IMG/VR virus record: IMGVR_UViG_3300042384_000211
Location: 64,001-128,000 of that record
Length of the DNA stretch: 64,000 bases
Reading direction: 5' to 3' (one strand)
Origin: a virus
The first letter of the stretch is position 1. Each line of letters starts with the position of its first letter. The position numbers were made by a program, and so were the translations under genes. Under the pieces are notes generated by a model, which made no database searches, was not told the origin of the DNA, and saw only the letters and a program-made list of their open reading frames with translations. Below are positions 4,553 through 26,606 of this stretch, one piece after another.

Positions 4553-4558
4553 AAAGCT

Positions 4559-4587: not shown

Positions 4588-4591
4588 GTGA

Positions 4592-5641: not shown

Positions 5642-5659
5642 ATTATTCTCGAGTGTAAA

Positions 5660-6391: not shown

Positions 6392-6422
6392 ATTATTTCC
6401 ATGTGTTACAGATATTTAGCTG

Positions 6423-9059: not shown

Positions 9060-9061
9060 TA

Positions 9062-10189: not shown

Positions 10190-10203
10190 TTTATTTAAAC
10201 TCC

Positions 10204-10211
10204 TATAAATA
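10204..10211 (+). promoter_or_regulatory. T4-type late promoter TATAAATA
   Basis: Exact T4 late consensus upstream of the 10239 operon; TAAATA recurs before many genes. Confidence 0.65.
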
Positions 10212-10238
10212 CTTGTATAATAATTCAAGGAGTAGACT

Positions 10239-10520
10239 GTGGGCGACATATTCAAAATCATCGGAGACCTAGGGTTTCCTATCGCAGTAGCATTAGCAGG
10301 CGGCTATTTTGTTTACCTAACAATCAAATTACTACTACAAGGTGTACTAGGTAGTATCAAAGGCATGGCCGGTATCATCACAGCATTAGACAATCGCGTT
10401 AAAACAATGAATCATGAAATTATCAGAATAGACACACAAGTTAGTTCAGCACTAGGACTACGCCCCGACCTTGAAAGAATAGCCAGAGCCGACGGAAAAA
10501 CAGATGCTCGGAGAGATTAA
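10239..10520 (+). CDS. Small single-TM membrane protein (GFPI motif), paralog of 11993
   Basis: GTG start with AGGAG SD; TM helix then coiled coil. Confidence 0.7.
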   Translation: MGDIFKIIGDLGFPIAVALAGGYFVYLTIKLLLQGVLGSIKGMAGIITALDNRVKTMNHEIIRIDTQVSSALGLRPDLERIARADGKTDARRD

Positions 10521-10681
10521 TGTTTAAACTACCTCATCAGGAATGGTTGGAGCAACAACCAAAGCACACACAAGAATGGCTTAAGAAACAATCTATCTGG
10601 AATGACACTGATATAATTAAAGCATTTGCTTTTGGAGTATTTGTTGGATTAATAATAGGAGTAGTATTATGTCTGCAATAA
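10520..10681 (+). CDS. Small protein with C-terminal TM (53 aa, not in ORF track)
   Basis: MFKLPHQEWLEQQPKHTQEWLKKQSIWNDTDIIKAFAFGVFVGLIIGVVLCLQ*, TAATG-coupled to the previous gene. Confidence 0.65.
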   Translation: MFKLPHQEWLEQQPKHTQEWLKKQSIWNDTDIIKAFAFGVFVGLIIGVVLCLQ

Positions 10682-11445
10682 ACATGCGCCCGTTTACTGA
10701 GCAGGCTTGGTTGTTTGCTAAGATTAGTGAACTTGCTTACTTAGATGAAAAGGAAGGTCGAGCGGCATTTAAAGAACTTGGGTTTAAATCAACCCTAATA
10801 GATGTTAAAGGTAGTCAAGCATATTGGTTAGAAAACAAAACTGACTTAGTTATTGCCTGCCGTGGCACACAGCCTACAGAGTTTGCTGATATTGCCAGTG
10901 ACTTAAAAGCCCGTCCAGTAAAAAGCAACTCAGGTGTAAAATGGATCCATCGTGGATTTAAAGAAAGTGTAGATAACATTTGGCCCGAACTAAAAGATCT
11001 TGCCGATGATCACGGTAAGACACGTACAGTATGGTGTACAGGGCACAGTCTAGGAGCCGCAATGGCCACATTAGTTGCTTATCGTCTACAGTATTCAGAA
11101 GATTGCCCTAGTCCACAGGCTTTGTTTACCTTTGGTAGTCCAAAAGTTGGCACTAAAAATTATATTAACAAAATTGAAGCAACAGGTGTACTACATTTCC
11201 GCTTTGTTAACAATGCCGATATCGTAGCACGTGTTCCACCTTGGCCATACAAACACTTTGGTGGTATGTATTATATGAATCACTATGGTCACTTACGTGC
11301 TCCAACAGCGTGGCAGGTAACTAAAGACGTGTGGCGTGGATTCTTAGTAGGACTTAAACGTCGAGAAATCAACTTCTTTACCAATCACAGCATTACACGC
11401 TATGCCGAAATCTTAGAGCGTTGGAAAAATGGGGACAATGGATAA
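10669..11445 (+). CDS. Lipase class 3 (alpha/beta hydrolase)
   Basis: CRGT, HRGF, GHSLGAA, TFGSP, DIVARVP, terminal NHS. Confidence 0.9.
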   Translation: MSAINMRPFTEQAWLFAKISELAYLDEKEGRAAFKELGFKSTLIDVKGSQAYWLENKTDLVIACRGTQPTEFADIASDLKARPVKSNSGVKWIHRGFKESVDNIWPELKDLADDHGKTRTVWCTGHSLGAAMATLVAYRLQYSEDCPSPQALFTFGSPKVGTKNYINKIEATGVLHFRFVNNADIVARVPPWPYKHFGGMYYMNHYGHLRAPTAWQVTKDVWRGFLVGLKRREINFFTNHSITRYAEILERWKNGDNG

Positions 11446-12002
11446 TGGCTTTACATGATACAGTAATTAAAATGGTAACACGTCAGAAGAAAGACGTAGT
11501 TGAAGAGGACGTTTCAGCTACAGAAAAACTTATTAAAAGTAAAGCTGGTCTAGTAATTAATATCTTTGCGGCATTGTTAGCATTCAACATGTGGCTACAA
11601 GGCAGTCTTAATAGCAAGGTAATGAACAACACTATACAGGCCAACGACATCTGGGCTTTTTATCAAGCTAAAAGTATTAAGCAAACACAGTATGAGCTAG
11701 CCGCACAACAAATTACAGATCCTGCTAAAGCTAAAAAGTTTACTGATAAAGCTGCAAGTTATGAACTAGGTGAAGAAGGCAAACCAGCACTATTCAAACA
11801 GGCCAAGGCATTAGAAGCAGATCGTGATCATTATAAACAACAATTACCTTGGGTAGGTTATGCTTCAACAGCATATCAACTAAGCATTGTATTATTGTCA
11901 GCAAGTATCTTAAGTGTTAGTATGGCTTTGTTCTGGGGTAGCTTTTTTATGGCAGGTGCAGGCATATTCTTAATGTTACAAGGGATTTTATTATGGATGT
12001 AG
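11421..12002 (+). CDS. Membrane protein, DUF4337-like (start probably 11445)
   Basis: ANDIWAFYQAKSIKQ motif, three TM segments. Confidence 0.7.
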   Translation: MEKWGQWIMALHDTVIKMVTRQKKDVVEEDVSATEKLIKSKAGLVINIFAALLAFNMWLQGSLNSKVMNNTIQANDIWAFYQAKSIKQTQYELAAQQITDPAKAKKFTDKAASYELGEEGKPALFKQAKALEADRDHYKQQLPWVGYASTAYQLSIVLLSASILSVSMALFWGSFFMAGAGIFLMLQGILLWM

Positions 12003-12316
12003 TAGATTTAGTAAACAAATATGGCTTTCCCATTGTTATGGCAGTGGGCATGGGATTCATCATCAAATTCGTATTCGAATGGGCCACAAAAGAGGTAAAA
12101 CCAGTCATTTCAGACGCAAATACTGTGCTTATTGCCTTGATTGATCGCATACGTATGTTAGACAACGATTTAATACGTTTGAATCAAAAAGTAAACACTG
12201 TGTTACATCTACGTGGTAAGACAATTGAATTTGAACGTGTAGAAGCCGAGAAAGAAATTAATAAAGCACATTTAAAGAATGAAGACGATAAAACTGCAAG
12301 TGGTGGCAGTGACTAA
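11993..12316 (+). CDS. Small single-TM membrane protein (GFPI motif), paralog of 10239
   Basis: YGFPIVMAVGMGF...LIALIDRIRMLDNDLIRL. Confidence 0.7.
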   Translation: MDVVDLVNKYGFPIVMAVGMGFIIKFVFEWATKEVKPVISDANTVLIALIDRIRMLDNDLIRLNQKVNTVLHLRGKTIEFERVEAEKEINKAHLKNEDDKTASGGSD

Positions 12317-13104
12317 TCAACATTAATATCGCTGTTGCTAACTGTTACAGCGATTTTTTGTGCTTCTGGAAAACGTGTACGAGTATTTTTACTACCAAGC
12401 AACACAATCACACGTTGTCCTAACTCAGTATCAAGTAGCATAACCACACAACCGCCACTTTCATTTATATAACCTGTTTTACTTACTCTTACATCATTAC
12501 TATTTCTAACCATTGGATTGGTGTTGCCAAATTGCCACCAACGACGTTTAACTTTGATACTTACATTAGGTTTACCACTAGCTTCGGTAATCTCTGTATA
12601 TTCGTTTGCGGCTAGGACTAATTTACCTAAATCACGGGCATTACTCACATTGCCTGCGTCTAATCCTGTAGGGTCGGCAAATGTGGTACTTGTCATGCCT
12701 AATACAAACGCAATATGATTCATTTCAGCTATACAACGAGCTAGACCACCCGGATAATTTGCGCCTAATGTATATGCGGCAAAGTTATCACTCTTGACAA
12801 TAGCAAGATCAATTAATTCACCACGAGTCAGCTGTTTAACGCTGCGCGGTAACCGAGTGTGATACTTATTAACCATTCTACGATCAAGTGTGATCATTTC
12901 ATCTAAGTTTTGGTTGGCATCTAACACCACCATCACTGTCATTAGTTTAGTAATGCTGGCAATAGGCTGTACACGATCAGCATTCTTTTCTAGTATAACT
13001 TCGCCTGTGTTATCTGCTACTAAAAAACTTTTAGCAGTAATAGGCTTTGCTACTACTGCGGTGCAGAATAGTAGCAGTATGATGAAACTACTTGCTCGTA
13101 GCAT
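12313..13104 (-). CDS. D-Ala-D-Ala carboxy/endopeptidase (peptidase S11, PBP7-like)
   Basis: ASITK (SxxK), SDN, KTG motifs; signal peptide from MLRASSF. Confidence 0.9.
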   Translation of the reverse strand: MLRASSFIILLLFCTAVVAKPITAKSFLVADNTGEVILEKNADRVQPIASITKLMTVMVVLDANQNLDEMITLDRRMVNKYHTRLPRSVKQLTRGELIDLAIVKSDNFAAYTLGANYPGGLARCIAEMNHIAFVLGMTSTTFADPTGLDAGNVSNARDLGKLVLAANEYTEITEASGKPNVSIKVKRRWWQFGNTNPMVRNSNDVRVSKTGYINESGGCVVMLLDTELGQRVIVLLGSKNTRTRFPEAQKIAVTVSNSDINVD

Positions 13105-15100
13105 GATATGTTCCATCAAAATTTGCAGGAACACCCTGTTCCATACGCTCAATCATTAGTTCATAATAATGTTTAATATCAACATCATCGTTGTTGACTA
13201 ATTTTTTAGCCCATACAATAGCCTTGCCCCACGAACCTCGAGTATATTCTTTGCGATACTCTTCGTGCATATACAGATTAGTACGACCAACTGTATAAAT
13301 GTCAAGACCAATTGTTTTACCTTTAACAGCAATGTTATCTAGCCATACTACAGGAAATGCATCTTTACAATACTCAGCAGTTTTAGGACCAATGATTAGT
13401 AGGACACCATATGATTTAGTCTGTCCTTCTAGTCGAGCCGCTGTACTTACACTGTCACCTAATACGTCATAGCCAAACTTGCTCTTAGCACCAATGTTAC
13501 CAATTAAGGTTTCACCAGTGTTGACACCCGCACCCATACCAACTGGCGGACGACCACTGGCTACAAGTTCTACGTTAAAGTCCTCAATGGCTTTGATCAT
13601 TTCAAGTGCTGTCTGTACAGCAGTCTTGGCGTGATTAGCATCATCTAATGGAGCACCGTGTACGTGTAGTGACGCATCACCAATGAACTTAATCAGAGTA
13701 CCGTCGTTCTTAAGTACAGGAATACTCAGTGCTGTCATGTAGTCGTTCATGATCTGTGTGAGACCTTCTACATCATCTCCAAAACTTTCACCGAGTGTAG
13801 TAAAGCCACGTAGGTCAGTCATAACAATTGATAACTCTCGACGTTCACCACCTAACTTAATTAAGTCTGGATTCTTTTGCAAGCGTTCAACAATAGTAGG
13901 GTTAACATAACTACCAAATTGTTTCTTGATCTGTTGTTTCTGTAGGAACTCTGATACAAACTTAACGCCGTAAGCATGTAGCATAACTAGAACTATGCCT
14001 GCCGTTGGTACAATAGCATCAATTAAAAATTTGTAGTGCGAGAACAGGTACATACTAGCAGGAATTAAACTAGCAGTTAATACAATACCTACACCAAGTC
14101 CTACATAGACCCAACGGCTTAAGAACAAGATGATCAAACTGATAGCGATAAGTGCCAACAGTTCAGCACCAGGTGCCCAATCGGGACGTTCAATGTTTAC
14201 ATTGTTGGCTAATGTGCCAATTACAGCGGCCTGCATATCTTGAGGCCACACGTTACCTTTACTTGTTGCTACAGGATTATTAGTACCTGCGGCTGTAGTG
14301 CCCACAATAACAATATTGCCACCAAAATCGTCGGGCAAATCAACTGCCGATACTTGACGATTAGTCTGACTCCAGTCTACCCAGATACGTCCTTGACTGT
14401 CTGTACTGATAGGATTAAAGCCAGGAATACGCATCTTCTCTACACCTTGCGCATTTAACTTAACTTGGAAAGTATTAGTGTTGACTAAGACTCGCAGAAC
14501 TTCTAATGGTATACTAGGATATACATTATTGTCGTAGCCCACAAACAATGGCAGTCTACGGTTAACCCCGTCTATTTCTGGAAATGTGTTAGCAATACCA
14601 ACACCAACAGCATTCTGCTCTAAACTAGGAATGTTAGCAATGATGCCTGGATATTGTACAATAGTGTCAATGTACTCTGAGCCAATAACAGCACTACCTG
14701 GCTTACGTGGAATATTCTTAGTTGCTTGGCCGGGCATGTTGGTTAAGATAACAGGAAAGTCTGTTAATGCTTCAGCAAGGTAAGCATCACCACCTTGTCG
14801 ATCAGTCTCTGGCATCATAACAGTCCAAACAACCAGACCAGCATTATGACTATACAGGTCGCTGATCAGGTCTGCGTAAACATCACGTTTGAATGGCCAC
14901 TGTCCAAACTTGTCTAGAGTGGCTTCATCTATGTTTACAGTGTAGATATTATTTTCTACCGGGGGTTGACTGGTAATAAGCTGATCAAAATATCGTAATT
15001 TAACGCTTTCTACAAACGTAGGACCAGTAATAGTAATACCGACAATCAGTGCTAGGGTTAGGACCGCAGTCCAAGGTGAGAGTAAGATTTTTTTAAGCAT
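13088..15100 (-). CDS. CHASE2-domain class III adenylate cyclase
   Basis: VNIDEATLDKFGQWPF, DGVNRRLP (CHASE2); 3 TM; MTDLRGFT, KFIGDA, YDVLGDSVSTAARLE. Confidence 0.92.
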   Translation of the reverse strand: MLKKILLSPWTAVLTLALIVGITITGPTFVESVKLRYFDQLITSQPPVENNIYTVNIDEATLDKFGQWPFKRDVYADLISDLYSHNAGLVVWTVMMPETDRQGGDAYLAEALTDFPVILTNMPGQATKNIPRKPGSAVIGSEYIDTIVQYPGIIANIPSLEQNAVGVGIANTFPEIDGVNRRLPLFVGYDNNVYPSIPLEVLRVLVNTNTFQVKLNAQGVEKMRIPGFNPISTDSQGRIWVDWSQTNRQVSAVDLPDDFGGNIVIVGTTAAGTNNPVATSKGNVWPQDMQAAVIGTLANNVNIERPDWAPGAELLALIAISLIILFLSRWVYVGLGVGIVLTASLIPASMYLFSHYKFLIDAIVPTAGIVLVMLHAYGVKFVSEFLQKQQIKKQFGSYVNPTIVERLQKNPDLIKLGGERRELSIVMTDLRGFTTLGESFGDDVEGLTQIMNDYMTALSIPVLKNDGTLIKFIGDASLHVHGAPLDDANHAKTAVQTALEMIKAIEDFNVELVASGRPPVGMGAGVNTGETLIGNIGAKSKFGYDVLGDSVSTAARLEGQTKSYGVLLIIGPKTAEYCKDAFPVVWLDNIAVKGKTIGLDIYTVGRTNLYMHEEYRKEYTRGSWGKAIVWAKKLVNNDDVDIKHYYELMIERMEQGVPANFDGTYHATSK

Positions 15101-15111
15101 AAGATTATTTA

Positions 15112-15363
15112 TTATCTGCTTTGACGTAATCGATCTAAATATTCTCGGCCAATCTTACCCTCTTCAAGTTCTTGCAGTGCAGCACTAACAGTACGATTAC
15201 GGTATTTTAGGTTTGAATCAGCATTCTGTGCAATACGTCTAGTAGACTCAATCTCACGTGCTCGTGTAGCGGCAATTAAAATCATTTCAAATCTATTACC
15301 CCCTACATTAACCAATGCCCGATCTACGTCAATTTCTGTGCCTAATTTATCGATGTAACTCAT
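15112..15363 (-). CDS. rpoZ: RNA polymerase omega subunit-like protein
   Basis: GNRFEMILIAATRAREI...ALQELEEGKI. Confidence 0.8.
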   Translation of the reverse strand: MSYIDKLGTEIDVDRALVNVGGNRFEMILIAATRAREIESTRRIAQNADSNLKYRNRTVSAALQELEEGKIGREYLDRLRQSR

Positions 15364-15395
15364 TGCTGTTCCTTATATTGTTTAATAGTACAACT

Positions 15396-15424
15396 ATTAT
15401 ACAGTCGTTAGAAATAAAAGTCAA
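15396..15424 (-). promoter_or_regulatory. Sigma70 promoter for rpoZ-like gene
   Basis: TTGACTtttatttctaacgactgTATAAT. Confidence 0.8.
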
Positions 15425-15451
15425 GAGAAAGCCCACTTAGTTGGCTTTTTA

Positions 15452-15488
15452 ATTGTATTTTTAAATGGCGACAATAAGAAAAATTTAT
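15452..15488. promoter_or_regulatory. OxyR-like operator, copy A
   Basis: ATTG-N7-AAAT-N7-ATAA-N7-TTAT versus consensus ATAG-N7-CTAT-N7-ATAG-N7-CTAT. Confidence 0.5.
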
Positions 15489-15588
15489 AAGCAGTAGGCA
15501 TGACTGTTTCATGAAGTCAAGAGAAATTTAATCAAATATATTTTAAGTGTTAAATACTATGCAAGTCCAACTTTTATGAAAGGTTTAT

Positions 15589-15885
15589 ATGAAATTAATC
15601 TTAACAGTATTATTATTAGGTAGTTGTATTACAGCAAATGCTAATCAAGCACTAGCACAAAAAAGTGGTTGTCTGGCATGTCACGCAGTTGATCGTAAAA
15701 TCATAGGACCATCATATCAAGATGTTGCTAAGAAATACAAAGGTCAAGACGTCGAAGCAAAATTAGTAGACAAGGTTAAGAAGGGTGGTAGCGGAGTATG
15801 GGGTCCCATGCCTATGCCAGCACACAGTCCACAGGTTAAAGACGAAGATATTAAAACACTTGTTAAATGGGTGTTAGCGCAGTAA
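15589..15885 (+). CDS. Periplasmic cytochrome c551/c552 (class I)
   Basis: Signal peptide, CLACH, GPSYQDVA, GVWGPMPMP. Confidence 0.92.
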   Translation: MKLILTVLLLGSCITANANQALAQKSGCLACHAVDRKIIGPSYQDVAKKYKGQDVEAKLVDKVKKGGSGVWGPMPMPAHSPQVKDEDIKTLVKWVLAQ

Positions 15886-15886
15886 T

Positions 15887-15912
15887 AAAAAGCCCCTTAA
15901 TTGGGGCTTTTT
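15887..15912. terminator. Bidirectional terminator
   Basis: AAAAAGCCCC-TTAATT-GGGGCTTTTT between convergent genes. Confidence 0.85.
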
Positions 15913-15916
15913 GTTT

Positions 15917-16483
15917 TTATAGTTTACCAACTAGGTCCAAACTTGGTGCTAGTGTAGCACTACCTTCTTGCCATTTAGCCGGGCATACTTCACCCGGATG
16001 TTCACGTGTGTATTTTGCCGCTTTAACTTTACGTAATAGTTCTTTTGCATCACGACCAACACCACCTGGATTAATCTCAATAATCTGTACTACGCCATCT
16101 GGGTCAATAACAAATGTACCACGGTCAGCCAGGCCTTCTAAAGGAATAAGCACACCAAACTGTTCACTTAGCTGATGATTAGGATCACCAATCATTGTAT
16201 ATGTGATGTTACGGATTGTGTCTGTAGCATCTGCCCATGCTTTGTGTACAAAGTGTGTGTCTGTGCTTACGCTGTATACTTCTACACCTAATGCTTTAAA
16301 GTCACTAGCGTATACGTCTTGCAAGTCTGCTAGCTCTGTTGGGCAGACAAATGTAAAGTCTGCTGGATAGAAAAACACCACTGACCAATGGCCTTTTAAA
16401 TCTTGCTCTGTTACTTCTACAAACTGACCTTGACGATATGCTTGTGCTTTGAACGCTTGTACTTCTTTACCGATTAAACTCAT
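15917..16483 (-). CDS. ahpC: Alkyl hydroperoxide reductase C (2-Cys peroxiredoxin)
   Basis: [31 protein letters not shown]. Confidence 0.96.
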
Positions 16484-16568
16484 TTACTTCTCCTTATTAA
16501 ATTGTTAATGTACATATATTATATATTAAAATTTTTAATAAAAAAAGCCCGATTAATAGGTTTTTTTA

Positions 16569-16605
16569 ATTGTATTTTTTAATGACCGCAATAAGTTTTG
16601 TTTAT
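16569..16605. promoter_or_regulatory. OxyR-like operator, copy B, upstream of ahpC
   Basis: ATTG-N7-TAAT-N7-ATAA-N7-TTAT. Confidence 0.6.
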
Positions 16606-16636
16606 AGGTTATGAAGTAACAATGATAAATAACTGT

Positions 16637-17104
16637 ATGAAACATATACATCACATCTTACCTCAATACCTAGGCGGCACTGACGATCCTAGTAACCTAA
16701 TAGAACTTACTGTAGAAGCTCACGCAGAAGCGCATCGCTTATTATACGAGCAACACGGCAATTGGCAAGACTATTGTGCGTGGCAAGCATTGTCCGGACG
16801 TATTGGGCAAGAAGAAATATTAAGGATGAAACAAGGTATGGCTAATAAAGGTAGAAAGCGTACACCAGAACAGATTGAAAATATTAAAGCAGCCGCAAGG
16901 AAACGAGTCGAAAGACATCGCGCTGATGGTACATTAGAACGTGCAGCTATTAAGCAAAGTGCATCAATGAAGGGAAAAGTAAAATCTGAAGAACATATAG
17001 CTAATTGGGCGGCTAGTCGAAAAGGGCATGCGGTATCTGAAGAAACACGAGAAAAAATAAGAAAGACATTAGCAGAAACTAGAGCCAATAAAAAAGCTCT
17101 ATAA
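16637..17104 (+). CDS. HNH homing endonuclease with NUMOD3 repeats
   Basis: HHILPQYLGGTDDPSNLIELTVEAHAEAH; KGHAVSEETREKI; TAAATA at 16626. Confidence 0.85.
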   Translation: MKHIHHILPQYLGGTDDPSNLIELTVEAHAEAHRLLYEQHGNWQDYCAWQALSGRIGQEEILRMKQGMANKGRKRTPEQIENIKAAARKRVERHRADGTLERAAIKQSASMKGKVKSEEHIANWAASRKGHAVSEETREKIRKTLAETRANKKAL

Positions 17105-17114
17105 AAGAGCTTTT
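17092..17114. terminator. Bidirectional terminator
   Basis: AAAAGCTCT-ATAAA-AGAGCTTTT between HNH gene and pqqA. Confidence 0.7.
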
Positions 17115-17132
17115 ATTATCATGTGTTAAATC

Positions 17133-17204
17133 TTAACGATTCATTACATAAAGAGTCACTTCAAAACCGAAACGCATTTCTGTTGCTGCTGGTGTAGTCC
17201 ACAT
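17133..17204 (-). CDS. pqqA: Pyrroloquinoline quinone precursor peptide
   Basis: Own translation MWTTPAATEMRFGFEVTLYVMNR* (23 aa, ExxxY core), AGGAG SD; below the ORF-track cutoff. Confidence 0.93.
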   Translation of the reverse strand: MWTTPAATEMRFGFEVTLYVMNR

Positions 17205-17351
17205 AATAATTCTCCTAGATAAAAGTCTAAAACAACGTTGTGTTGTTACTAGTACTTATACATATAATAACACCAATATGGCCTAAATAACATACGTAAA
17301 ATCATTAAAGACCGATAATTTTCTTGCGATTAGTTTAGATTGCTATATCTG

Positions 17352-17558
17352 TTATTTTTTCAAACACTGTGCGTGTACTTTAAATGTATCAAATTTTAAC
17401 CAATAGGTCAATGATTGTTTAGCATCTTCACATTGCGTTTCATTGGCAAATTCAAGTGTAACCTTGCCCGGTATATCTTTTGGGTCAGTTATGTTTACCA
17501 CTAGTATCAATAGTATCCAACTCATTGGATTATGTGATTCCAGTAGACTATAGCCCAA
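17352..17558 (-). CDS. Small secreted-type hypothetical protein (start probably 17525, MSWILL)
   Basis: Hydrophobic N-term, two Cys. Confidence 0.55.
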   Translation of the reverse strand: MGYSLLESHNPMSWILLILVVNITDPKDIPGKVTLEFANETQCEDAKQSLTYWLKFDTFKVHAQCLKK

Positions 17559-18289: not shown

Positions 18290-18360
18290 ATGCCAATGGC
18301 CGCCATGATCGCTAATATACCACTAATTTCTTTTACAGCTTCTATAAAAATCTCAAACAT
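18271..18360 (-). CDS. Putative 29-aa membrane peptide
   Basis: MFEIFIEAVKEISGILAIMAAIGIWSLFP*, AGGA SD, fills the gap between porin and phosphoesterase. Confidence 0.45.
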   Translation of the reverse strand: MFEIFIEAVKEISGILAIMAAIGIWSLFP

Positions 18361-18371
18361 AGTTTTTCCTA

Positions 18372-19799
18372 TTAGAAGTTGTACTGCAATTGCACACGTA
18401 GGGCATCTGCTTTAAAGTTAGCATAGTCTTGTTTTGCTATTGTAGTAGCAGTTGCTCCTGTTACTAAATTGCTACGGTTCATCATATGATAGTAAGCCAC
18501 AAGTTCAACTTCTGGAGCAATTTGCCATTCAGCTCCTATCTCCCAATCGTTAACCTTGTTCATCGGTGAGTTAGTTTCTGCTTTTGACGCACCATCAAAG
18601 TATTGCCATCTAACAAATGGAATTAAAGTACCATTAGTATCTAACACTTTGAAGTTGTCAATCTTATACATAGTTTGAATGTAGCCACCGTTTAAGTTAG
18701 TTTCTTTGATAATACCATCAGTGCTAGCAGTAGTATCTAAGCCAGGAGTTTTACCCCAGTTCCACTCACCTTGTAGACCTAATGGCTGTGGGTACATCAT
18801 AAAACTTACACCCACACGTTGATCTTTAAAACCAGTTGTGTTGCCTGCTTCTAATGTTGGTGTTTTAGTTGCGTAAACATTGTTGCCCATATTTTTTCTA
18901 TATGCACTACCTGTTCTTACATACTTGCCCGAGTAACCTTGTACACCAGCTTCGTAGATTTGACCGCTTTCGGTTTTCCATGGGTAAGTAGCACGTGCCA
19001 CAACGTGGTAGTTGTCATTACGATCTTGTTGGTTAGCACCTTGACCATTATAAACACCCAAGGCAACCATACCGTAGTTACCCGAATGTTTTAAACCGCC
19101 GTCTTGAATTTCTTTAAAGAGCTTTTGAACGTTGTCCGGTGTGTAGTAATAAAACGCACCCAAATCACGCTCGTCACGTACTGCACTATTAAATGCGTCA
19201 GCGCGATCAAGTGCTAGACGATTTTGTGAAGATTGTAAGTTTTCAAAGCCATATGGTACTTTACTTTGTCCAACACGAACGCGGTGTACTTTGTCTTTGG
19301 TCAAGTTAACATCACCATAAGCATCACGCAGTTGCGCTACGTTACCTGTGGTACCTGCTGTACTAGCAAAGTCAGGTTGAATATAATAATCCAAACGCTC
19401 ACCAGCTGAACCAGAAATGATCACACGTGCTCGACGGATAAGAAAGTTTTTGTCTTGATCAGCAAGAGAGTTTTTATTACCTACAGATCGATCTGACCAA
19501 AGGTTGACTCCTTCGTCACCACTAAGCATAGTAGTATTGCGCACTTGTAAATAGCCACGAATGTTCATTTTACTAGCCGCATGTACAGTGGTATCTTTTT
19601 CTTTTTTAACTGCGCCTATTTCACCAGTATGGCCTTTGTTTAGCAGTGCGCCTTCTTCTTCTGTAAGTACACCTTTCATAACCAGTGCATTAACAATGTC
19701 TGTGGTACTGTCTGCGTGAGCTTGTTTTAATCCTGCCATTGATAGTGCAAATGCTATTACTACATAATACATTATTGATTTAACTTGTTGTATGGTCAT
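18372..19799 (-). CDS. Phosphate-selective porin OprO/OprP family
   Basis: FLIRRARV, LRDAY, GQSKVPYGFENLQSSQNRLALDR, RDLG, C-terminal QYNF. Confidence 0.85.
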   Translation of the reverse strand: MTIQQVKSIMYYVVIAFALSMAGLKQAHADSTTDIVNALVMKGVLTEEEGALLNKGHTGEIGAVKKEKDTTVHAASKMNIRGYLQVRNTTMLSGDEGVNLWSDRSVGNKNSLADQDKNFLIRRARVIISGSAGERLDYYIQPDFASTAGTTGNVAQLRDAYGDVNLTKDKVHRVRVGQSKVPYGFENLQSSQNRLALDRADAFNSAVRDERDLGAFYYYTPDNVQKLFKEIQDGGLKHSGNYGMVALGVYNGQGANQQDRNDNYHVVARATYPWKTESGQIYEAGVQGYSGKYVRTGSAYRKNMGNNVYATKTPTLEAGNTTGFKDQRVGVSFMMYPQPLGLQGEWNWGKTPGLDTTASTDGIIKETNLNGGYIQTMYKIDNFKVLDTNGTLIPFVRWQYFDGASKAETNSPMNKVNDWEIGAEWQIAPEVELVAYYHMMNRSNLVTGATATTIAKQDYANFKADALRVQLQYNF

Positions 19800-19836
19800 T
19801 AATATTCCCCTTATATATATTATTTAAACACACAAA

Positions 19837-19865
19837 GATTACAGTAATGTTACAAATAGATTAAA
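19837..19865 (-). promoter_or_regulatory. Pho-box-like triple direct repeat
   Basis: TTTAATC-tatt-TGTAACA-ttac-TGTAATC at exact 11-bp spacing upstream of the OprP-like porin. Confidence 0.55.
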
Positions 19866-19888
19866 TTTTTAATACACATAGCCAAAAT

Positions 19889-19910
19889 AAAACCCGCCTC
19901 AGCGGGTTTA
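19889..19910. terminator. Intrinsic terminator
   Basis: AAACCCGC-CTCA-GCGGGTTT. Confidence 0.75.
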
Positions 19911-19924
19911 TTGTTTTGAAGTAG

Positions 19925-20086
19925 TTAGATCCTAACCACTGACCACTTACCATTGAACGGCTTACCTTCGGCCTTGTGTTTCAGTATCTTCGTAAACTCT
20001 TTTTTCTTAAGTTTAACAATGGTTTCTGTATCATGGTCGAGACAAGCACGATATAACTTAGTGAGTAATTTACTCTGTTTCATCAT
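19925..20086 (-). CDS. Small basic hypothetical protein (53 aa, not in ORF track)
   Basis: MMKQSKLLTKLYRACLDHDTETIVKLKKKEFTKILKHKAEGKPFNGKWSVVRI*, AAGGAGG SD, own terminator. Confidence 0.75.
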   Translation of the reverse strand: MMKQSKLLTKLYRACLDHDTETIVKLKKKEFTKILKHKAEGKPFNGKWSVVRI

Positions 20087-20130
20087 GATGTCCTCCTTGT
20101 GTACTATTTACACTAATTGTTAAAATAAAA

Positions 20131-20160
20131 GATTACAATTTAGATTACATATAGATTAAA
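20131..20160 (-). promoter_or_regulatory. Second Pho-box-like repeat
   Basis: TTTAATC-tata-TGTAATC-taaat-TGTAATC (11 and 12 bp spacing). Confidence 0.45.
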
Positions 20161-20183
20161 AAAGCCCCAGTTAAGGGGCTTTT
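20158..20183. terminator. Intrinsic terminator after porin
   Basis: AAAAGCCCC-AGTTAA-GGGGCTTTT. Confidence 0.8.
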
Positions 20184-20208
20184 TAATTATTAGACTAAGA
20201 AGTAAATC

Positions 20209-21420
20209 TTAGAAGAATAAGATAGCACCTGCTGATACTGAACGTGATTTACCTTCTGCACCGTTTTGTGCTTCTGATTTAACGTCTGAGTATTCAGCAA
20301 CTAAGTTCACGTGTTTTGTGAGTGGGTGATAAGCACCAACAGTCCACATTTCGTTTTTCGAAACTAAAGCTGTAGCTGTTTCGCCACTGTTACGATCTAA
20401 TTTACTTTGACCATAACTTAGACCAAGTTTGGTAGCAGTAGGCAATGTGTATGTACCTTGCACGTAGCCGCCATTTGAATCACGACGTTTACCTGTAGCA
20501 TCAAAGCCGTCTAGTAATTGTAGTGAACGGCCAATACCTTTACCATCAAAGTAGTAAGCAGTTAACCCGTATGGACCAGCAGACAAGTTTGTACCAACGT
20601 CCCATGCATAAGCACGGCTGTCGGCGTTAGCACCAGATAGGCCTTCAACTTTTTGTGAAATAGCACTTGACCAAACTTTAGCAGCAATAGGGCCTGCTAG
20701 TGAGTAAGATACTTTACCTTCGAATGCTGGTTGAGCGCCGCCACGTCCTGTTGAAGTAGCTGAAGCAGCTTGTACACCTGCTGTTACTGCATTTAAGTCA
20801 GCTGTTTGAGCATTCCATGCTTGTGTTACACCAGCAGTGAATTGGAAGCCGTCGAAGTTTGGTGATGTGTAGGCAACTTGTGATTTCCAGTCAGCGTACA
20901 TATAACCAGTCCCAATACGACCTAACGTTGTTGTGTTACCAGCTAGTGCACCAGCGCCTGCACCAACACCCAGCAATGTCATGTCGTTAAGGATTGCATC
21001 AGAAGCGTAGATACCTAAATCTTTACCTAGTTTTACACTACCCCATGATTTATCACCGATGGTTAAGAATGCTTGACGATTTTCTTGGTTAGCTGTTTGA
21101 ATACCGGCTTGTGTTGTAGAAGCACCCGGATTGATAGCAATTGTAAAACCGATGTCTAGATCATTTTGACGTGACTTACCAGAAACTGATAATACGTTTG
21201 GTAATAAACCAGTTGTGATATTTGATTCGTTACGTTGACCTGTAGCATTAGGTCCACCTAGACCACCAACTACTGCACTGCCTGTGCCGCGTGTGTTTGT
21301 GTAGTAAGCGTTTACAACGCCACCGATGTCTAGTGTCCAATCACCAGCTGGAATTTGAATGCCAGCGTGAGCAGTTGAATACATACTTGCTAATAATGTT
21401 GCTAATAATAATTTCTTCAT
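20209..21420 (-). CDS. Gram-negative outer membrane porin
   Basis: MKKLLLA signal peptide with AGGAG SD, YTSPNFDGFQF, C-terminal Phe. Confidence 0.88.
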   Translation of the reverse strand: MKKLLLATLLASMYSTAHAGIQIPAGDWTLDIGGVVNAYYTNTRGTGSAVVGGLGGPNATGQRNESNITTGLLPNVLSVSGKSRQNDLDIGFTIAINPGASTTQAGIQTANQENRQAFLTIGDKSWGSVKLGKDLGIYASDAILNDMTLLGVGAGAGALAGNTTTLGRIGTGYMYADWKSQVAYTSPNFDGFQFTAGVTQAWNAQTADLNAVTAGVQAASATSTGRGGAQPAFEGKVSYSLAGPIAAKVWSSAISQKVEGLSGANADSRAYAWDVGTNLSAGPYGLTAYYFDGKGIGRSLQLLDGFDATGKRRDSNGGYVQGTYTLPTATKLGLSYGQSKLDRNSGETATALVSKNEMWTVGAYHPLTKHVNLVAEYSDVKSEAQNGAEGKSRSVSAGAILFF

Positions 21421-21571
21421 TACGATACTTCTCCTTTTATTGGATAACACTAATATGTTATACTATCAGTGTATAGTATTTATAATGATGTGTCAACCTT
21501 TTGTTGTTTTTTGATAACATTGTTGTAAAAATACAACAGTTATTAATACCGTTACAGTATCGATTCTGCTG

Positions 21572-22927
21572 TTATTGCCCTTGTATTACAGTTATTGCCT
21601 GACAGGCACTAGCGCAACTACTATTAATACTGTAAAACTGTTGCACTGTACCTTGCTGATTTAAGTTTAAACTTCTAGCACCTGCTCCACTTAGAGTAAT
21701 GTCAGCCATGTGTGCAGCACTGCCCTGTTGAGTTATGTCTACTGTCTTATTACCGCCACTTACTGTCAAATCTAAGTGGTGATTGCCTGCGTCTTTCTGC
21801 AAGACCGAGACTGTATTAGCATTATTGTTAACTGTCGCGTATACACCCTTGGCGCCGCCTGTACTCTGCTGGATAACATCAACGTTATTATTGTTACCGA
21901 GAATATTTAAATCGGTATAGTTTGCAACAGTTGACGCTGTACCAGATTGGGTTATATCAACTGTATTTGAACTACCATTTCCGTAGTAGTCAACATAGTT
22001 ATTTCTTGTGCCGGTTTGATTTACCACAATGGTATTGTTGTTGCCTATCTGTTCAATGTACACCTGACTGTCCTGTGTTGTCCTATTGATAAAGGCCTGC
22101 ATAGAAGCTGATTTTTCAACGTCTATAGAAAAGGCGGCTGAACTACCGCCACAACATAAACTAGGAGCAACTGGTTCTGCAGGTGGAGCAGTAGACCCGG
22201 CATTAGGAGCCACAGCACCAAATGTCTGCCCATTCAATGCAGTAGTGCCCTGAATTTCATCTATAAACAACATCGGGCTTAGTGCTGTATCACCAAGATT
22301 AAATGAGGCAAATCCTAATATGTACGTACCAGTTTCTGGCACTGTAAAGCGAGCCTGTTGCCACCCAGTTGAACCATAAGAACCTGTAGCATAGTTACCT
22401 GTACCAGGATTAGTAAATCCCAGTAGAGCATAGCGTTGTTGACTGTTGTTTAAGTTAGGAGTAATACCACCATTGGTAGCATGTGTCAGAGTCATCATAC
22501 TGCCGTCATTAAAGGGTGTATAGTCCGTACTTAAATAATTCCAACCAAATGTATATGTGGTTCCTGCTTGTAGAGATATTTCTCGTTTGATCCAAGAAGC
22601 ATTAGTAGGAGTAGCATTACCACCACCTCCATTTTGACTTTGAAATGTTAAGTAGTTTCTTATGGCTGTATTTTCTACTGAAGTTAATCCTAACTGAGTA
22701 GTGGCCGTATTGAACTGCACACTGCCTGTGGGTTGAAGACGACCCATCTTTGTACCATAAGGATTCACTGTCCAATTCTTTCCGCCACCGGGACTGACAC
22801 TGGTAGTGCCCAATACTGTAACATCACCGCCGCTTGCGGTCCAGCCAGTTAAATTGCCAGACTCAAACCCCAACTGGGCCAGAGCATTATTACATATGAA
22901 TAACATAACAAGTGCAATTAATCTCAT
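21572..22927 (-). CDS. Secreted protein: N-terminal beta-sandwich-like domain plus C-terminal curlin-type repeats
   Basis: Signal peptide; GFESGNLTGW domain; VYIEQIGNNNTIVVNQTG, NTVDITQSG, NNVDVIQQ, KTVDITQQG. Confidence 0.7.
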   Translation of the reverse strand: MRLIALVMLFICNNALAQLGFESGNLTGWTASGGDVTVLGTTSVSPGGGKNWTVNPYGTKMGRLQPTGSVQFNTATTQLGLTSVENTAIRNYLTFQSQNGGGGNATPTNASWIKREISLQAGTTYTFGWNYLSTDYTPFNDGSMMTLTHATNGGITPNLNNSQQRYALLGFTNPGTGNYATGSYGSTGWQQARFTVPETGTYILGFASFNLGDTALSPMLFIDEIQGTTALNGQTFGAVAPNAGSTAPPAEPVAPSLCCGGSSAAFSIDVEKSASMQAFINRTTQDSQVYIEQIGNNNTIVVNQTGTRNNYVDYYGNGSSNTVDITQSGTASTVANYTDLNILGNNNNVDVIQQSTGGAKGVYATVNNNANTVSVLQKDAGNHHLDLTVSGGNKTVDITQQGSAAHMADITLSGAGARSLNLNQQGTVQQFYSINSSCASACQAITVIQGQ

Positions 22928-24012
22928 CTGCGTAACACTCCAGAATTCTGTTTAATACGCACTACATTACCACCCGGATCACCCGAACCAATTATAGCCG
23001 AAGCTATGTTGTCATCATGTGTAATTTCAATCGAAGTATTACTTTCGTAGCCCTGTGTTTTAACTTCAGCATAGTGATCTTCGCTTTGGCGGAACGCAAC
23101 GCCTCGACCACGTGCTTGAATAGTATCACCGTCGGGTCGTTCCCATCTCACACAGATATTAGTTGTTGGATTACAACCGGTTTTGCCGCTATCGAAACTG
23201 TAAGGTAGTACCACAGCCTTAGCGTCGGGTTCGTTGTCCATACGCTGTGACATTTGACTGACCTGTATAGCTTCCAATTCTTCTTGTTCTAGTTCGCGTT
23301 TACTTTTTGCCGCGTCTTTACTAGCTCGAATAATTTCTGGCGGGCGAGCAATAATAAGACTGTTGCCAATCTTACCTTCAACTGTATTAATAATAACCGG
23401 AGGACTAGGCATCATGTTAGCACTGGTTACATAGGTACCTTCAAATGCTTTGTCTAGGGTAACTATGCCAGCAAGTGTACTGACTTCAATCTTGCCTACT
23501 TTACATAAGTTTTCTTCTAGCTCGTATTCTTTGATCTTTTCGCCTTCTTTACAGCTAGGTACAAGAATTACTAGACTCTGCCCTGCTTCGTCTACAGTCA
23601 TGTTAAAGTCTGTACCTCGAACAGCAATTGATGCTGTGGGGGTTTTAATGTCTACTCGTTGTGGATTATTTTTAGCAATTTGTCCACTGGCATAACGTAC
23701 TGTGCCCATACCTACTTTAAGAGCTAGCTTGCCTGCATCGGATTTTTTAGGATCAAAAACAAAGTCGTCTATCATTAGTCGACTGTTTTCTGTTATTTTT
23801 ACTTTGGTGTCATCTTTAAATGTAATGTTGCTAACACAGCCGCCTGTAACATAGGTATCCATACTTTCTATGGCGGCACCTTTATTACCAGGCAGGGTCT
23901 GTTTAGCACGCTCTATTGAGCAAGCGGTACCTTTAGTATCGCTTACTGTCCCAATGCCCGCCCATGCGTTAGTAACTGCTACTAAGCATGCTATTGCAAG
24001 CAATAGTTTCAT
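22924..24012 (-). CDS. FecR-domain secreted/periplasmic protein
   Basis: ITFKDDTKVKITENSRLMID, GTVRYASG, IKTPTASIAVRGTDF. Confidence 0.85.
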   Translation of the reverse strand: MKLLLAIACLVAVTNAWAGIGTVSDTKGTACSIERAKQTLPGNKGAAIESMDTYVTGGCVSNITFKDDTKVKITENSRLMIDDFVFDPKKSDAGKLALKVGMGTVRYASGQIAKNNPQRVDIKTPTASIAVRGTDFNMTVDEAGQSLVILVPSCKEGEKIKEYELEENLCKVGKIEVSTLAGIVTLDKAFEGTYVTSANMMPSPPVIINTVEGKIGNSLIIARPPEIIRASKDAAKSKRELEQEELEAIQVSQMSQRMDNEPDAKAVVLPYSFDSGKTGCNPTTNICVRWERPDGDTIQARGRGVAFRQSEDHYAEVKTQGYESNTSIEITHDDNIASAIIGSGDPGGNVVRIKQNSGVLRR

Positions 24013-24015
24013 TGA

Positions 24016-24801
24016 CTATCTCACTATTGCTGATACTGGACTTACTATAGCGCCGCTACTCGAACGAACAGTAATTGTATTATTATTACCGGTTGTGCTG
24101 ATATTAAATGTAGTATCATTTGTACCTTGTTGCTGTGTAGTAATACTGTTAAAATCACCTGTAGTTGAGGTAACTAAACTATGACCAGCACTACCTGCAG
24201 CATCAATTTGTTGTATATTGAATATGTTGTTACTACCACTAATAGTGTTGGTAATATCAGCGTTGCTAGTAGTTACAGTAGTGGTCAATTGGTTACTACC
24301 ACCGTTAATAGTAGTTGATAATGCATTATCACTACCAACAATATTAGTAATCAACATATTAGTACTACCAGTAACAGTTTCAGTAACAGTATTACGCATA
24401 CCATTAGTGTTAGTATCACCGATTGTAAGTTTGCTTTGATTACCGTCACCAGTTAGAGTACTTGTAAAGCTATTATTTCCACCTTTGATGTTGTACTGTG
24501 ATTGGTTATCATCGCCGGTTTGTGTAATAGTAACACCGTTATTGCTACCGTTAATTGTAGCATAATTACTTGTACTAGGTGCTGTTACTGTTAATGTACT
24601 TAGACCTGTTGCGTCAACTGCTACACTACCAGCAATACCACCAACATCGTTTGTGCCGCCGACTTGTTCAATTGTAACAATATTGGTGCTACCTAATTGT
24701 TCAATGTAAACACGGTTAGGTCCTGTTGGACCTGCGGCCATCAATGATGTTGATAACGCTAAAAACATCATACTTACTGTTGCTTTTAAATTATATTTCA
24801 T
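24016..24801 (-). CDS. Curlin-repeat protein (CsgA/CsgB-like)
   Basis: Signal peptide; NRVYIEQLGSTNIVTIEQVG, NNGVTITQTGDDN, NSITTQQQGTN. Confidence 0.75.
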   Translation of the reverse strand: MKYNLKATVSMMFLALSTSLMAAGPTGPNRVYIEQLGSTNIVTIEQVGGTNDVGGIAGSVAVDATGLSTLTVTAPSTSNYATINGSNNGVTITQTGDDNQSQYNIKGGNNSFTSTLTGDGNQSKLTIGDTNTNGMRNTVTETVTGSTNMLITNIVGSDNALSTTINGGSNQLTTTVTTSNADITNTISGSNNIFNIQQIDAAGSAGHSLVTSTTGDFNSITTQQQGTNDTTFNISTTGNNNTITVRSSSGAIVSPVSAIVR

Positions 24802-24834
24802 CGTCGTGCTCCTTGGATTTTTAAAATCCTATTA

Positions 24835-25701
24835 TTATTTTATTGTTTCTAACAGCGGGTATGTTATACCATCTGTTTGTACTACAGGCTTAGGTTCTTC
24901 TTTGTAAGACCAATGCCCTTTACGAACCCCTTCTCGAATAGTAGCAATCACGGCCGCTTTTACTGCTAGGCTTGTTGCTTTATTGATACTTTCATTGATA
25001 CTCATACCAGTTTCAGCTTCGACGGCTTTTGTGCCTTCTTCAACAAACTTTAATACACCAAGTTTGTCCATGTAGCTTAATACTGTTTTAGTAACTGTTA
25101 CAGTTGTTAATACTTCACCTGTATTAACACTTACTGTTCTTAATGTAACCGTTACTGTATCACTTTGGTATTGCGTTTGTGCGCCAATACCTAGTATACG
25201 AACACCACTACCACCCGTAAGCAGGTTACTATCGTAGCCTGTTATACTTCCTTCAACAATAACACCAGCAAACATCATTGGTGGTAATGCCTTAGCTTCA
25301 CGACCTTGATATTGTTCACGCATCTGACGAATCATCTGACGTTCTTTAATCAAATTGTCTAACCCTACACGTTCTAACACAGTAAACCAACGTTGGTCGC
25401 CTACATCTTGTAGGGCGCCAATTAGGTATGCTTCTGCACCTTGCGATACTGCTGTACTAAAACTAGCCACGTTGGGTACATTTTTACGCTGTCCGGTTTT
25501 ATCTAAGAAACTATATACTGCTACCGGAACGGGGCCGCCGCTCGGAGGTAATACCTTATTCTCTGGTTTAGTAAAGTATGTTTCACGTACTATCTCAGGT
25601 TTATCAAATTGCTCACTTGTTATTTGTTCACGGATAGCACTACTTGTTGCACATCCTGTTAACAGTGCGGTTATTAATAAGGATATAAGTGTTTTATTCA
25701 T
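24835..25701 (-). CDS. csgG: Curli secretion channel lipoprotein CsgG
   Basis: LTGC lipobox, VAVYSFLDKTGQRK, FSTAVSQG, VLERVGLDNLIKERQMIR. Confidence 0.93.
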   Translation of the reverse strand: MNKTLISLLITALLTGCATSSAIREQITSEQFDKPEIVRETYFTKPENKVLPPSGGPVPVAVYSFLDKTGQRKNVPNVASFSTAVSQGAEAYLIGALQDVGDQRWFTVLERVGLDNLIKERQMIRQMREQYQGREAKALPPMMFAGVIVEGSITGYDSNLLTGGSGVRILGIGAQTQYQSDTVTVTLRTVSVNTGEVLTTVTVTKTVLSYMDKLGVLKFVEEGTKAVEAETGMSINESINKATSLAVKAAVIATIREGVRKGHWSYKEEPKPVVQTDGITYPLLETIK

Positions 25702-25710
25702 GTATATTCC

Positions 25711-26208
25711 TTAAAAATAAAATGAGCCTGCAGGCACTTTCATTGTTGTAATATTATTAACGTTAGCTAGGTCCTGTATAGTGATGATAATTAACCCATT
25801 ATCATTACCTGCACCCAAACTCCATTGAATACTATTTCCGCCTAAGTTTGGAATATTACCGCATACTACACCCGCTGTAGTACAAGTAGCACCTTCTCCA
25901 AACATACTGTCAGTTAGTTGTTTAGCCAACTGACTATAAATTCTTGATTCCAGATTAGCAATAAAGCGTGCCTGCGGAGTATTAAGTGCAGCAGATTCTG
26001 CTTTATCTCGAATAGCTTCTGCGGCAGATTCGCGCTTGTCTTTTGCTTGATCCTCTAATTGTTTAATCGTAAGGGCATGTATACCAAATCCTTGTCCGTG
26101 AAATGCCGGACTATTAAAGGTGTGTACCATTTCTGCGGCCTGCGCAATATTAGCGCCAGCAGTTAGCACGACGACCATTAAAAGATTGTAGAACATAGAT
26201 TTAATCAT
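25711..26208 (-). CDS. csgF: Curli assembly protein CsgF
   Basis: Mature N-term AEMVHTFNSPAFHG, FIANLESRIYSQLAKQL, adjacent to csgG. Confidence 0.82.
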   Translation of the reverse strand: MIKSMFYNLLMVVVLTAGANIAQAAEMVHTFNSPAFHGQGFGIHALTIKQLEDQAKDKRESAAEAIRDKAESAALNTPQARFIANLESRIYSQLAKQLTDSMFGEGATCTTAGVVCGNIPNLGGNSIQWSLGAGNDNGLIIITIQDLANVNNITTMKVPAGSFYF

Positions 26209-26279
26209 GTGAAAGCCCCTGTTAGTATTATTTAACGGGGGCTCATTGATAAATTATAGTGTATTATTACTTAACCGTT

Positions 26280-26606
26280 TTAGTCGGATACTACTGCTTC
26301 TGCTTCGTTAATACGTCTGATAATTTCTTCGTAAAATGTATCTACCTCACCACCAAATTTACCTATTAGATAATTAGCAGCATCTCGACAGTAACTATAC
26401 TGTTTAGACTGGTATCCGTTAATAAACTCATGATGTAATTTAACCCACGATTCTAATTGTGGCATGTCAGTTAGCGTTATTTTATCTGCAGGTATAACAC
26501 AAAATACTGCCAATGGTTGGCCTTCGACATCTATTGTTTCTAGATCTAGTACTGTGTATTTTTCTCGGAGTTTTCCTGCATTTTCTTTACCGAATATAAT
26601 TTCCAT
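26280..26606 (-). CDS. Hypothetical protein resembling the C-terminal region of the class III cyclase
   Basis: By-eye similarity to the last ~100 aa of 13088..15100. Confidence 0.55.
   Translation of the reverse strand: MEIIFGKENAGKLREKYTVLDLETIDVEGQPLAVFCVIPADKITLTDMPQLESWVKLHHEFINGYQSKQYSYCRDAANYLIGKFGGEVDTFYEEIIRRINEAEAVVSD

Follow-up and report, generated by a model that had tools for sequence, protein, structure and literature searches.

The DNA analyzed here (the window) is a stretch of 64,000 nucleotides comprising bases 64001-128000 of the 140,799-base IMG/VR virus record IMGVR_UViG_3300042384_000211, which has a CheckV completeness of approximately 40%. In the window lies a copy, intact though split, of the "viral curli" gene block known from publications. 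The block encodes type VIII secretion system (T8SS) components, two curlin-type proteins, a FecR-domain protein, a CHASE2 adenylate cyclase and two small membrane proteins, GFPI1 and GFPI2. The region is laid out as follows:

10239-10520, plus strand: GFPI1, a single-pass membrane protein of 93 amino acids (phrog_18771, E 2.9e-29)
11993-12316, plus strand: GFPI2, a GFPI1 paralogue of 107 amino acids with the same layout of GFPI motif, transmembrane segment and conserved helix (phrog_18771, E 5.8e-29)
12313-13152, minus strand: S11 DD-carboxypeptidase, an accessory gene directly downstream of the cyclase (PF00768, 138.6 bits)
13088-15100, minus strand: CHASE2 adenylate cyclase (PF05226, 130 bits; PF00211, Guanylate_cyc, 64 bits)
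15112-21450, mixed strands: variable island with Pfam and NCBIfam matches, outside the block
21572-22927, minus strand: curlin 2, 451 amino acids (Curlin_rpt, 21.0 bits; cut-off 20.7)
22924-24012, minus strand: FecR-domain protein (PF04773, 42 bits)
24016-24801, minus strand: curlin 1, 261 amino acids, with a beta-solenoid model (Curlin_rpt, 15.1 bits, under the cut-off)
24835-25701, minus strand: csgG, with a lipobox Cys (PF03783, 166 bits; cut-off 20.8)
25711-26208, minus strand: csgF (PF10614, 39.8 bits; cut-off 25.8)
26280-26606, minus strand: orf108, 108 amino acids, homologous to the cyclase tail by hhalign

The positions of the open reading frames (ORFs) and their Pfam matches bore out the genes and families named in the original prediction, which had been made from the letters alone. 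The distance of 6.5 kb that it gave between curlin 2 and the cyclase was measured as 6.47 kb. It had also described two paralogous small membrane genes on the same strand as the cyclase. The paralogy held, with both proteins matching phrog_18771 at approximately 1e-29, but both genes are on the plus strand and convergent with the minus strand cyclase gene. The S11 DD-carboxypeptidase gene sits between the GFPI genes and the cyclase, and genes for Lipase_3 and DUF4337 proteins lie between GFPI1 and GFPI2. Hydrophobic N-termini resembling signal peptides were present in CsgF, curlin 1, the FecR-domain protein and curlin 2, and CsgG has an L-T-G-C lipobox. All such N-terminal calls in this work were read by eye, with no predictor run. 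A G+C-rich hairpin (arms of approximately 7 bases, loop of approximately 14) followed by T residues was observed on the minus strand at approximately 26214-26243, between orf108 and the csgF ATG. Its 3′ edge is 6 nt short of this ATG and it could be a terminator or mask the ribosome-binding site.

The window also encodes the phage genes for the large and small subunits of ribonucleotide reductase, a DnaB-like helicase and exonucleases, plus a full DnaK and Hsp20. Among the relatives that CsgG led to, one record of 329,321 bases is 100% complete and has direct terminal repeats, and another of 353,123 bases is 98% complete. Because these near-complete relatives are of this size, the lineage is that of a jumbo phage of roughly 330-350 kb. 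No close DNA match was found when the block region was compared to deposited phage records by megablast. The T4-type late promoter TATAAATA was not enriched (8 sites compared to 9.1 expected), so no claim is made on the timing of expression.

The recurrence of the block was examined by a CsgG scan of IMG/VR, which gave 80 loci of which 59 were non-redundant. Genes were tallied on the loci long enough to judge. csgF was present in 58 of 58 such loci, curlin 1 in 51 of 54 and curlin 2 in 37 of 39. The FecR gene was present in all 44 judgeable loci and always between both curlin genes. The cyclase and both GFPI genes were present wherever the flank of the locus was long enough. Five records apparently lacked them, and in these a CHASE2 cyclase and two GFPI genes were located further along. 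Chance falls far short of accounting for a gene set that recurs in 59 non-redundant viral loci. Within IMG/VR the whole set occurs together on contigs of myo-, podo- and jumbo-type, and published work has it in podo- and myo-type pelagiphages (PMC9599517). Among deposited phages, tblastn with CsgG and tblastn with the cyclase both pointed to Methylophilales phage Melnitz and Pelagibacter phage HTVC008M. In both phages csgF, csgG, curlin, FecR, curlin and cyclase form an unbroken run on the same strand, with both GFPI homologues directly upstream of csgF. The proposal that the cyclase and the GFPI pair belong with the csgFG, curlin and FecR genes was therefore supported by the gene-neighborhood check, both in the co-occurrence of approximately 100% and in the contiguity seen in Melnitz, HTVC008M and many contigs.

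In the pelagiphage-type layout eight genes lie on one strand, with the small genes approximately 0-4 bp apart and the cyclase preceded by a gap of 0-60 bp. In the jumbo-type layout the GFPI pair is downstream of the cyclase and on the opposite strand. The order csgF-csgG-curlin-FecR-curlin-cyclase is kept in the window apart from the inserted island. The cyclase was on the other strand in one locus (L023). In another (L066) curlin 2 was missing and the FecR and cyclase genes adjoin at 15 bp. The S11 DD-carboxypeptidase occupies this place behind the cyclase in 8 further loci, 7 of them distinct (L008, L009, L011/L012, L031, L032, L058 and L060), and is outside the core of the block. The block is probably one conserved, horizontally mobile unit of eight genes with a lineage-specific ninth.

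Genes of this block have been reported before. csgF and csgG were reported in pelagimyophages in 2020 (PMC7029224) and discussed for Melnitz in 2022 (PMC9004378). In 2022 pelagiphages of podo- and myo-type were described as containing a region with curlin repeats, FecR and an adenylate cyclase, plus a "histidine kinase" upstream of csgF; the region was expressed in metatranscriptomes and present at all 65 GOV2.0 stations (PMC9599517). That study read FecR as an iron regulator and made no mention of CHASE2. Its "histidine kinase" sits at the position of the GFPI pair and may be the same genes; no kinase domain was found in the pair, and HATPase_c had no match in the present record. The statement of the original prediction that the pathway had not been characterized holds experimentally, but not for the gene block, which had been described in 2022 with FecR and adenylate cyclase included (PMC9599517). 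Compared to the pelagiphage T8SS block (gp014-019 of HTVC008M and gp99-104 of Melnitz), the copy in the window has the same gene content and internal order and the two phrog_18771 genes, with identities of 34-47%. The pelagiphage block is found in myophages of approximately 140 kb or in podophages, whereas the phages here are of approximately 330-350 kb. The present copy is also split by the 6.5 kb island, has the GFPI pair downstream of the cyclase and inverted, contains the extra orf108 and has Ser552 for Asn in the cyclase. The present case adds a jumbo-phage genome that carries the block, a layout both split and rearranged, orf108, the variant with Ser552 and a clearer bacterial FecR-CHASE2 precedent. 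It is no new kind of system.

The putative secretion channel is well conserved in sequence. The lipobox Cys17 of CsgG is kept in 35 of 36 sequences, and the loop region DKTGQRK / S-T-A-V is invariant in the alignment. The N-terminal motif of CsgF, F31-x-x-P34-x-F36-x-G38, is invariant in 60 homologues. This motif is taken to be the equivalent of the channel-binding motif of E. coli CsgF. Curlin 1 had no Pfam match at 0.01, and at a looser threshold Curlin_rpt scored 15.1 bits, below the cut-off. The protein had been called a curlin-repeat protein, and its own score does not reach that assignment. In its favor, 22 of 23 homologues match Curlin_rpt (best E 8.8e-6) and the closest structural match of its model is a CsgA protein. 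The AlphaFold2 model is an all-beta solenoid with a predicted local distance difference test (pLDDT) score of 80.6 and a predicted template modeling score of 0.76. Foldseek returned nothing for this model at E <= 0.001. The top match in VIA-align was Pontibacter CsgA (8c50_A) with Z 19.0 over 189 residues, 21% identity and a root mean square deviation (rmsd) of 8.4. The runners-up were generic solenoids such as SufD (Z 16-17, 7% identity). The model is compatible with a curlin-type subunit, short of proof, and curlin 1 is a candidate major fiber subunit with the predicted form of a secreted beta-solenoid.

The first repeat block is common to curlin 1 and curlin 2 (BLASTP E 8e-5). Curlin 2 comprises a signal peptide, a variable N-terminal beta-sandwich head and C-terminal curlin repeats. 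The beta-sandwich had a weak match to the PEP-CTERM-associated family NF038132, and the protein also had a weak CsgA match. Homologues ranged in size from 140 to 759 amino acids, which is as would be expected of an exposed, diversifying head. The block resembles enterobacterial curli (csgBAC-csgDEFG) in its CsgG lipoprotein channel, its CsgF F-x-x-P-x-F-x-G motif and its putatively exported Gln/Asn/Gly-rich repeat subunits, which are predicted beta-solenoids. It differs in that CsgE had no match (the search did not extend to CsgC and CsgD), its subunits have greater lengths of 261 and 451 amino acids, one subunit is headed by a beta-sandwich and a FecR-fold gene lies between the subunit genes.

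The stop codon of the FecR gene overlaps the start of curlin 2 (22924-22927). The protein has a signal-peptide-like start of approximately 18 residues, with the FecR fold from approximately residue 20. A PDB sequence search with it gave no match. In the predicted structure (pLDDT 68) residues 49-220 match the PupR periplasmic domain 6ovk_R (Z 14.3, rmsd 3.0, 136 residues), and the model also matches the Parabacteroides anti-sigma factor 4m0n (Z 12.7). No cytoplasmic anti-sigma domain and no transmembrane helix were seen in its sequence. Sigma70_r2 and TonB_dep_Rec had no match in the record or in two relatives at least 98% complete. The original prediction had found no csgE, extracytoplasmic function (ECF) sigma factor or TonB receptor, and family searches agreed for the record; csgD was not searched for. 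The periplasmic fold is thus common to FecR/PupR anti-sigma regulators and the phage protein, but the latter is not a Fec-type regulator because it is without the anti-sigma domain, the transmembrane helix, an ECF sigma factor and a TonB-dependent receptor.

These results bear on the view that an ungated CsgG pore imports nutrients, namely cofactors or siderophores, with FecR as a regulator of the iron-citrate type (PMC9599517). The gate CsgE is absent, porins are among the neighboring cargo and the protein carries the FecR name, all of which fit with uptake. The missing cytoplasmic anti-sigma domain and transmembrane segment do not, nor does the lack of any ECF sigma factor or TonB-dependent transducer in the record and the two near-complete relatives. 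The bacterial relatives of the protein pair with CHASE2 sensors and not with Fec systems. Uptake is a very improbable function for the block.

The last approximately 100 residues of the FecR-domain protein aligned to viral proteins only. This C-terminal domain is phage-specific, since bacterial relatives match only residues 20-230 or so. It ends in a conserved I-x-I-x-Q-N strand, of which at least 90% of sequences keep I353 and Q355. The end strand (GNVVRIKQNSG) had been described as curlin-like. It is present and conserved, but the likeness to curlin is by eye only and was not borne out as homology by profile comparison, in which FecR and curlin 1 matched only in their signal peptides (probability 7%). 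Complex prediction of the CHASE2 periplasmic domain (28-312) with FecR (19-362), using 19-row alignments, scored 0.00 and is evidence neither way.

Bacterial partners of the FecR domain were sought by a FecR-alignment scan of approximately 185,000 species genomes. The 15 best loci were of viral type (L084-L097 and L100) and 65 were genuine bacterial loci. The pairing of FecR with CHASE2 genes in bacteria, which the original prediction had taken as established, was evident in at least 30 of the 65, where a CHASE2 protein was encoded within 10 kb of the FecR homologue. No csgG, csgF, curlin or GFPI gene was found in any of the 65. A locus in a metagenome-assembled genome (MAG) of the Deltaproteobacteria has TPR, FecR and CHASE2 cyclase genes in succession. 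In S. meliloti the gene for the FecR-domain protein SMc02177 is presumably adjacent to cyaD1. SMc02177 is a target of the regulator Clr, which responds to cyclic AMP (cAMP), downstream of the CHASE2 cyclases CyaD1, CyaD2 and CyaK (PMC5498481). The Burkholderia BiofilmReg operon encodes a LysM-FecR protein beside a CHASE2 histidine kinase and regulates biofilm (PMC5192318). In Campylobacterota the gene clusters of CHASE2 cyclases also encode a phosphodiesterase, a protein with a FecR domain and a TPR protein (PMC9239204). FecR and CHASE2 appear to be a widespread bacterial sensor pair, found there without curli genes. The pairing holds whatever the output domain, and is most simply read as the FecR-domain protein and the CHASE2 domain working together outside the cytoplasm.

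As in the bacterial clusters, the phage block encodes an exported FecR-domain protein and a CHASE2 membrane receptor. In the bacterial clusters the two are encoded side by side. Here the genes are 6.5 kb apart, and in many relatives only curlin 2 intervenes, with the cyclase 0-60 bp after it. LysM is missing from the phage FecR, which has a C-terminal domain of its own, and the phage block has no phosphodiesterase or TPR partner. The FecR/CHASE2 pair joined to a T8SS and two virus-only proteins was found only in viral DNA.

The 15 viral-type loci are MAG contigs carrying the block, whole on the longer contigs and partial on the short ones. Most of the longer contigs (for example L086, L090-L092 and L094-L097) share other genes of this phage, and the short ones showed none. 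The MAGs are labeled Actinobacteria, Bacteroidota, Verrucomicrobiota, Planctomycetota, Synechococcus and others. These contigs are most likely phage DNA mis-binned into cellular genomes, because most of the longer ones share phage genes and the bins span unrelated phyla. A cultured SAR11 strain, Pelagibacter sp. HIMB1495, encodes in one native operon a CHASE2-PP2C phosphatase, a 540-amino acid protein, a FecR protein, a 473-amino acid protein and a second FecR protein (3250-12502 of locus L098). At least one SAR11 strain thus has a FecR/CHASE2 system of its own, though SAR11 is without curli genes. SAR11 is the host clade of related pelagiphages.

The cyclase is 37-42% identical to the HTVC008M and Melnitz cyclases. 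Its architecture, that of a receptor-type class III adenylate cyclase, comprises a transmembrane segment, a periplasmic CHASE2 domain, a transmembrane bundle, the cyclase domain and a conserved C-terminal tail, with the hydrophobic segments read from the sequence. It had been described as intact. Five of the six canonical catalytic residues are conserved, namely the metal Asp residues D429 and D475, the ATP-type pair K471/D545 and R556, but the transition-state Asn is replaced by Ser552. Of 35 homologues, 23 have Ser here and 12 have Asn. The change is not decay, because it is lineage-wide and conserved. PADLOC reported only generic class III cyclase similarity to PycC and nothing for the other proteins of the block. 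orf108 is a free-standing homologue of cyclase residues 567-654, the C-terminal tail (probability 95.5% and E 1.5e-8 in hhalign), and has no evident signal peptide. Its place is directly upstream of csgF, and outside the window it was seen there in the closest relatives alone (L004-L007, L010, L044 and L063-L065).

GFPI1 and GFPI2 have a short N-terminus and a G-F-P-I motif opening the single transmembrane helix, as seen in an alignment of 75 homologues. They share a strongly conserved helix, A-L-(I)-D-(N)-R-x-(K/R)-x-(M/L)-(N/D)-x-D-x-I-R. The nearest Atlas clusters are all viral. The two genes were always paired, and were with the block in every sufficiently long locus. Assignment of the pair to YvrJ was rejected (17 bits compared to a cut-off of 29.5, with 3 of 32 members matching), as was assignment of GFPI2 as a holin (phrog_4898, E 9e-4, over 19 N-terminal residues only).

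An outer-membrane pore alone does not depolarize the inner membrane. This counts against a reading in which CsgG and CsgF would be a gated pore timing lysis in a pinholin- or secretin-like manner, with the GFPI proteins as holin-like partners and the cyclase as timer. The GFPI proteins are small, single-pass and restricted to viruses, GFPI2 has its weak N-terminal holin PHROG match, and a lysis function was proposed for Melnitz (PMC9004378). That proposal assumed no fiber subunits, whereas nearly every locus keeps two curlin-repeat proteins that are predicted to be exported. The holin/YvrJ similarity extends over approximately 13-20 residues and is seen in only 3 of 32 members. Lysis timing is an improbable role.

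The island between curlin 2 and the cyclase encodes a Porin_4 protein, an OprO/P-type porin, a metallophosphoesterase, an HNH endonuclease, AhpC, a class I cytochrome c, an omega-like protein and a pqqA-like peptide. In many loci the cyclase follows curlin 2 after 0-60 bp, whereas others have more than 12 kb in between (range given for the comparison, 16 bp to more than 12 kb), and the content of the gap differs even between relatives with 91-92% identical CsgG. The genes in between had been regarded as later insertions, and this is supported because gap size and content vary among relatives. The position is an insertion hot spot for variable cargo. A strong sigma-70-like promoter match, TTGACT-17-TATAAT at 15424-15396, precedes the omega-like gene and the cyclase. 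The omega-like gene (15112-15363, minus strand; RNA polymerase omega, PF01192 39 bits, TIGR00690 26.5 bits) ends 12 nt ahead of the cyclase start.

The block could instead be two independent units sharing a variable island. One would be a fiber or adhesin secretion set and the other a borrowed bacterial FecR/CHASE2 sensor altering host cAMP, with no coupling between them. The bacterial FecR-CHASE2 pair works without any T8SS gene, the distance to the cyclase varies between 0 and over 12 kb with a change of strand in L023, and in the window it has its own promoter-like site and omega-like gene. However, FecR lies between the curlin genes in 44 of 44 loci with its stop overlapping the start of curlin 2, and the entire set is found together across myo-, podo- and jumbo-type contigs. 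The C-terminal domain of the phage FecR is also missing from the bacterial CHASE2 partners. Two uncoupled units are a possible but rather unlikely arrangement.

Further features of the island were noted. The Porin_4 and OprO/P porins and the LpxH/PlcP-like metallophosphoesterase (17522-21450, minus strand) form cargo aimed at the envelope or phosphate supply, and at this site relatives have other subsets. The metallophosphoesterase (17522-18289) was considered as a cAMP phosphodiesterase and rejected; its best NCBIfam matches were of LpxH type and weak (48 bits). A 23-residue peptide at 17133-17219 (minus strand) has the PqqA hallmark E-V-T-L-Y near its C-terminus, read by eye, and no pqqB-E genes were seen nearby.

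A jumbo-phage version of the curli (type VIII secretion) block known from viruses is the best explanation of the locus, and a probable one. Fiber export and a signal relay from FecR through the cyclase to cAMP are inferences. In the infected cell CsgG and CsgF would form an outer-membrane channel. This channel would export curlin 1 as the fiber body and curlin 2 as a fiber subunit whose variable head resembles a lectin. The FecR-fold protein, soluble in the periplasm, would be the extracytoplasmic partner of CHASE2 and modulate the cyclase, as FecR proteins appear to do in bacteria. The cyclase would change the level of cAMP, which would act on host proteins. The two virus-only single-pass proteins would be obligatory accessory subunits in the inner membrane.

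Several points weigh against this explanation. Ser552 in this lineage leaves the predicted cyclase activity not assured. The record and five relatives, of which two have a completeness of at least 98%, gave no match to a cyclic nucleotide-binding domain or cAMP receptor; host proteins would have to read the cAMP because the phage encodes no such protein. CsgE (PF10627) had no match in the 140.8 kb record, itself only approximately 40% complete, and its absence was also reported in PMC9599517. The cyclase need not be co-expressed with csgFG because it lies with the omega-like gene behind its own sigma-70-like promoter match, and co-expression cannot be assumed. No clumping was seen in Melnitz cultures by Buchholz et al. 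(PMC9004378).

A closer coupling of pore and sensor, existing only in viruses, is unlikely. In it the C-terminal domain of FecR would report curlin export or fiber contact to the cyclase, and the GFPI pair and orf108 would tune the enzyme. The infected cell would then sense crowding, attachment or superinfection through host cAMP.

The block is among the most widespread multi-gene cargo units in aquatic phages. If fibers are exported and the cyclase reports on them, the phage would control changes in both the surface and the second-messenger state of infected cells, with a bearing on aggregation, superinfection and carbon flow in plankton. FecR and CHASE2 as a general bacterial sensor pair would offer a route to the signal sensed by CHASE2 domains.

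Outside the block, the full-length DnaK gene lies beside Hsp20 on the minus strand (27988-30428), and its product has 67-71% identity to DnaK stretches of records labeled Pseudomonas, Acinetobacter, Salmonella and Escherichia. HNH/homing endonuclease genes are dispersed in the window at 16598-17104 (plus strand), 30465-31214 (minus strand) and 62800-63519 (minus strand), one of them within the inserted island.

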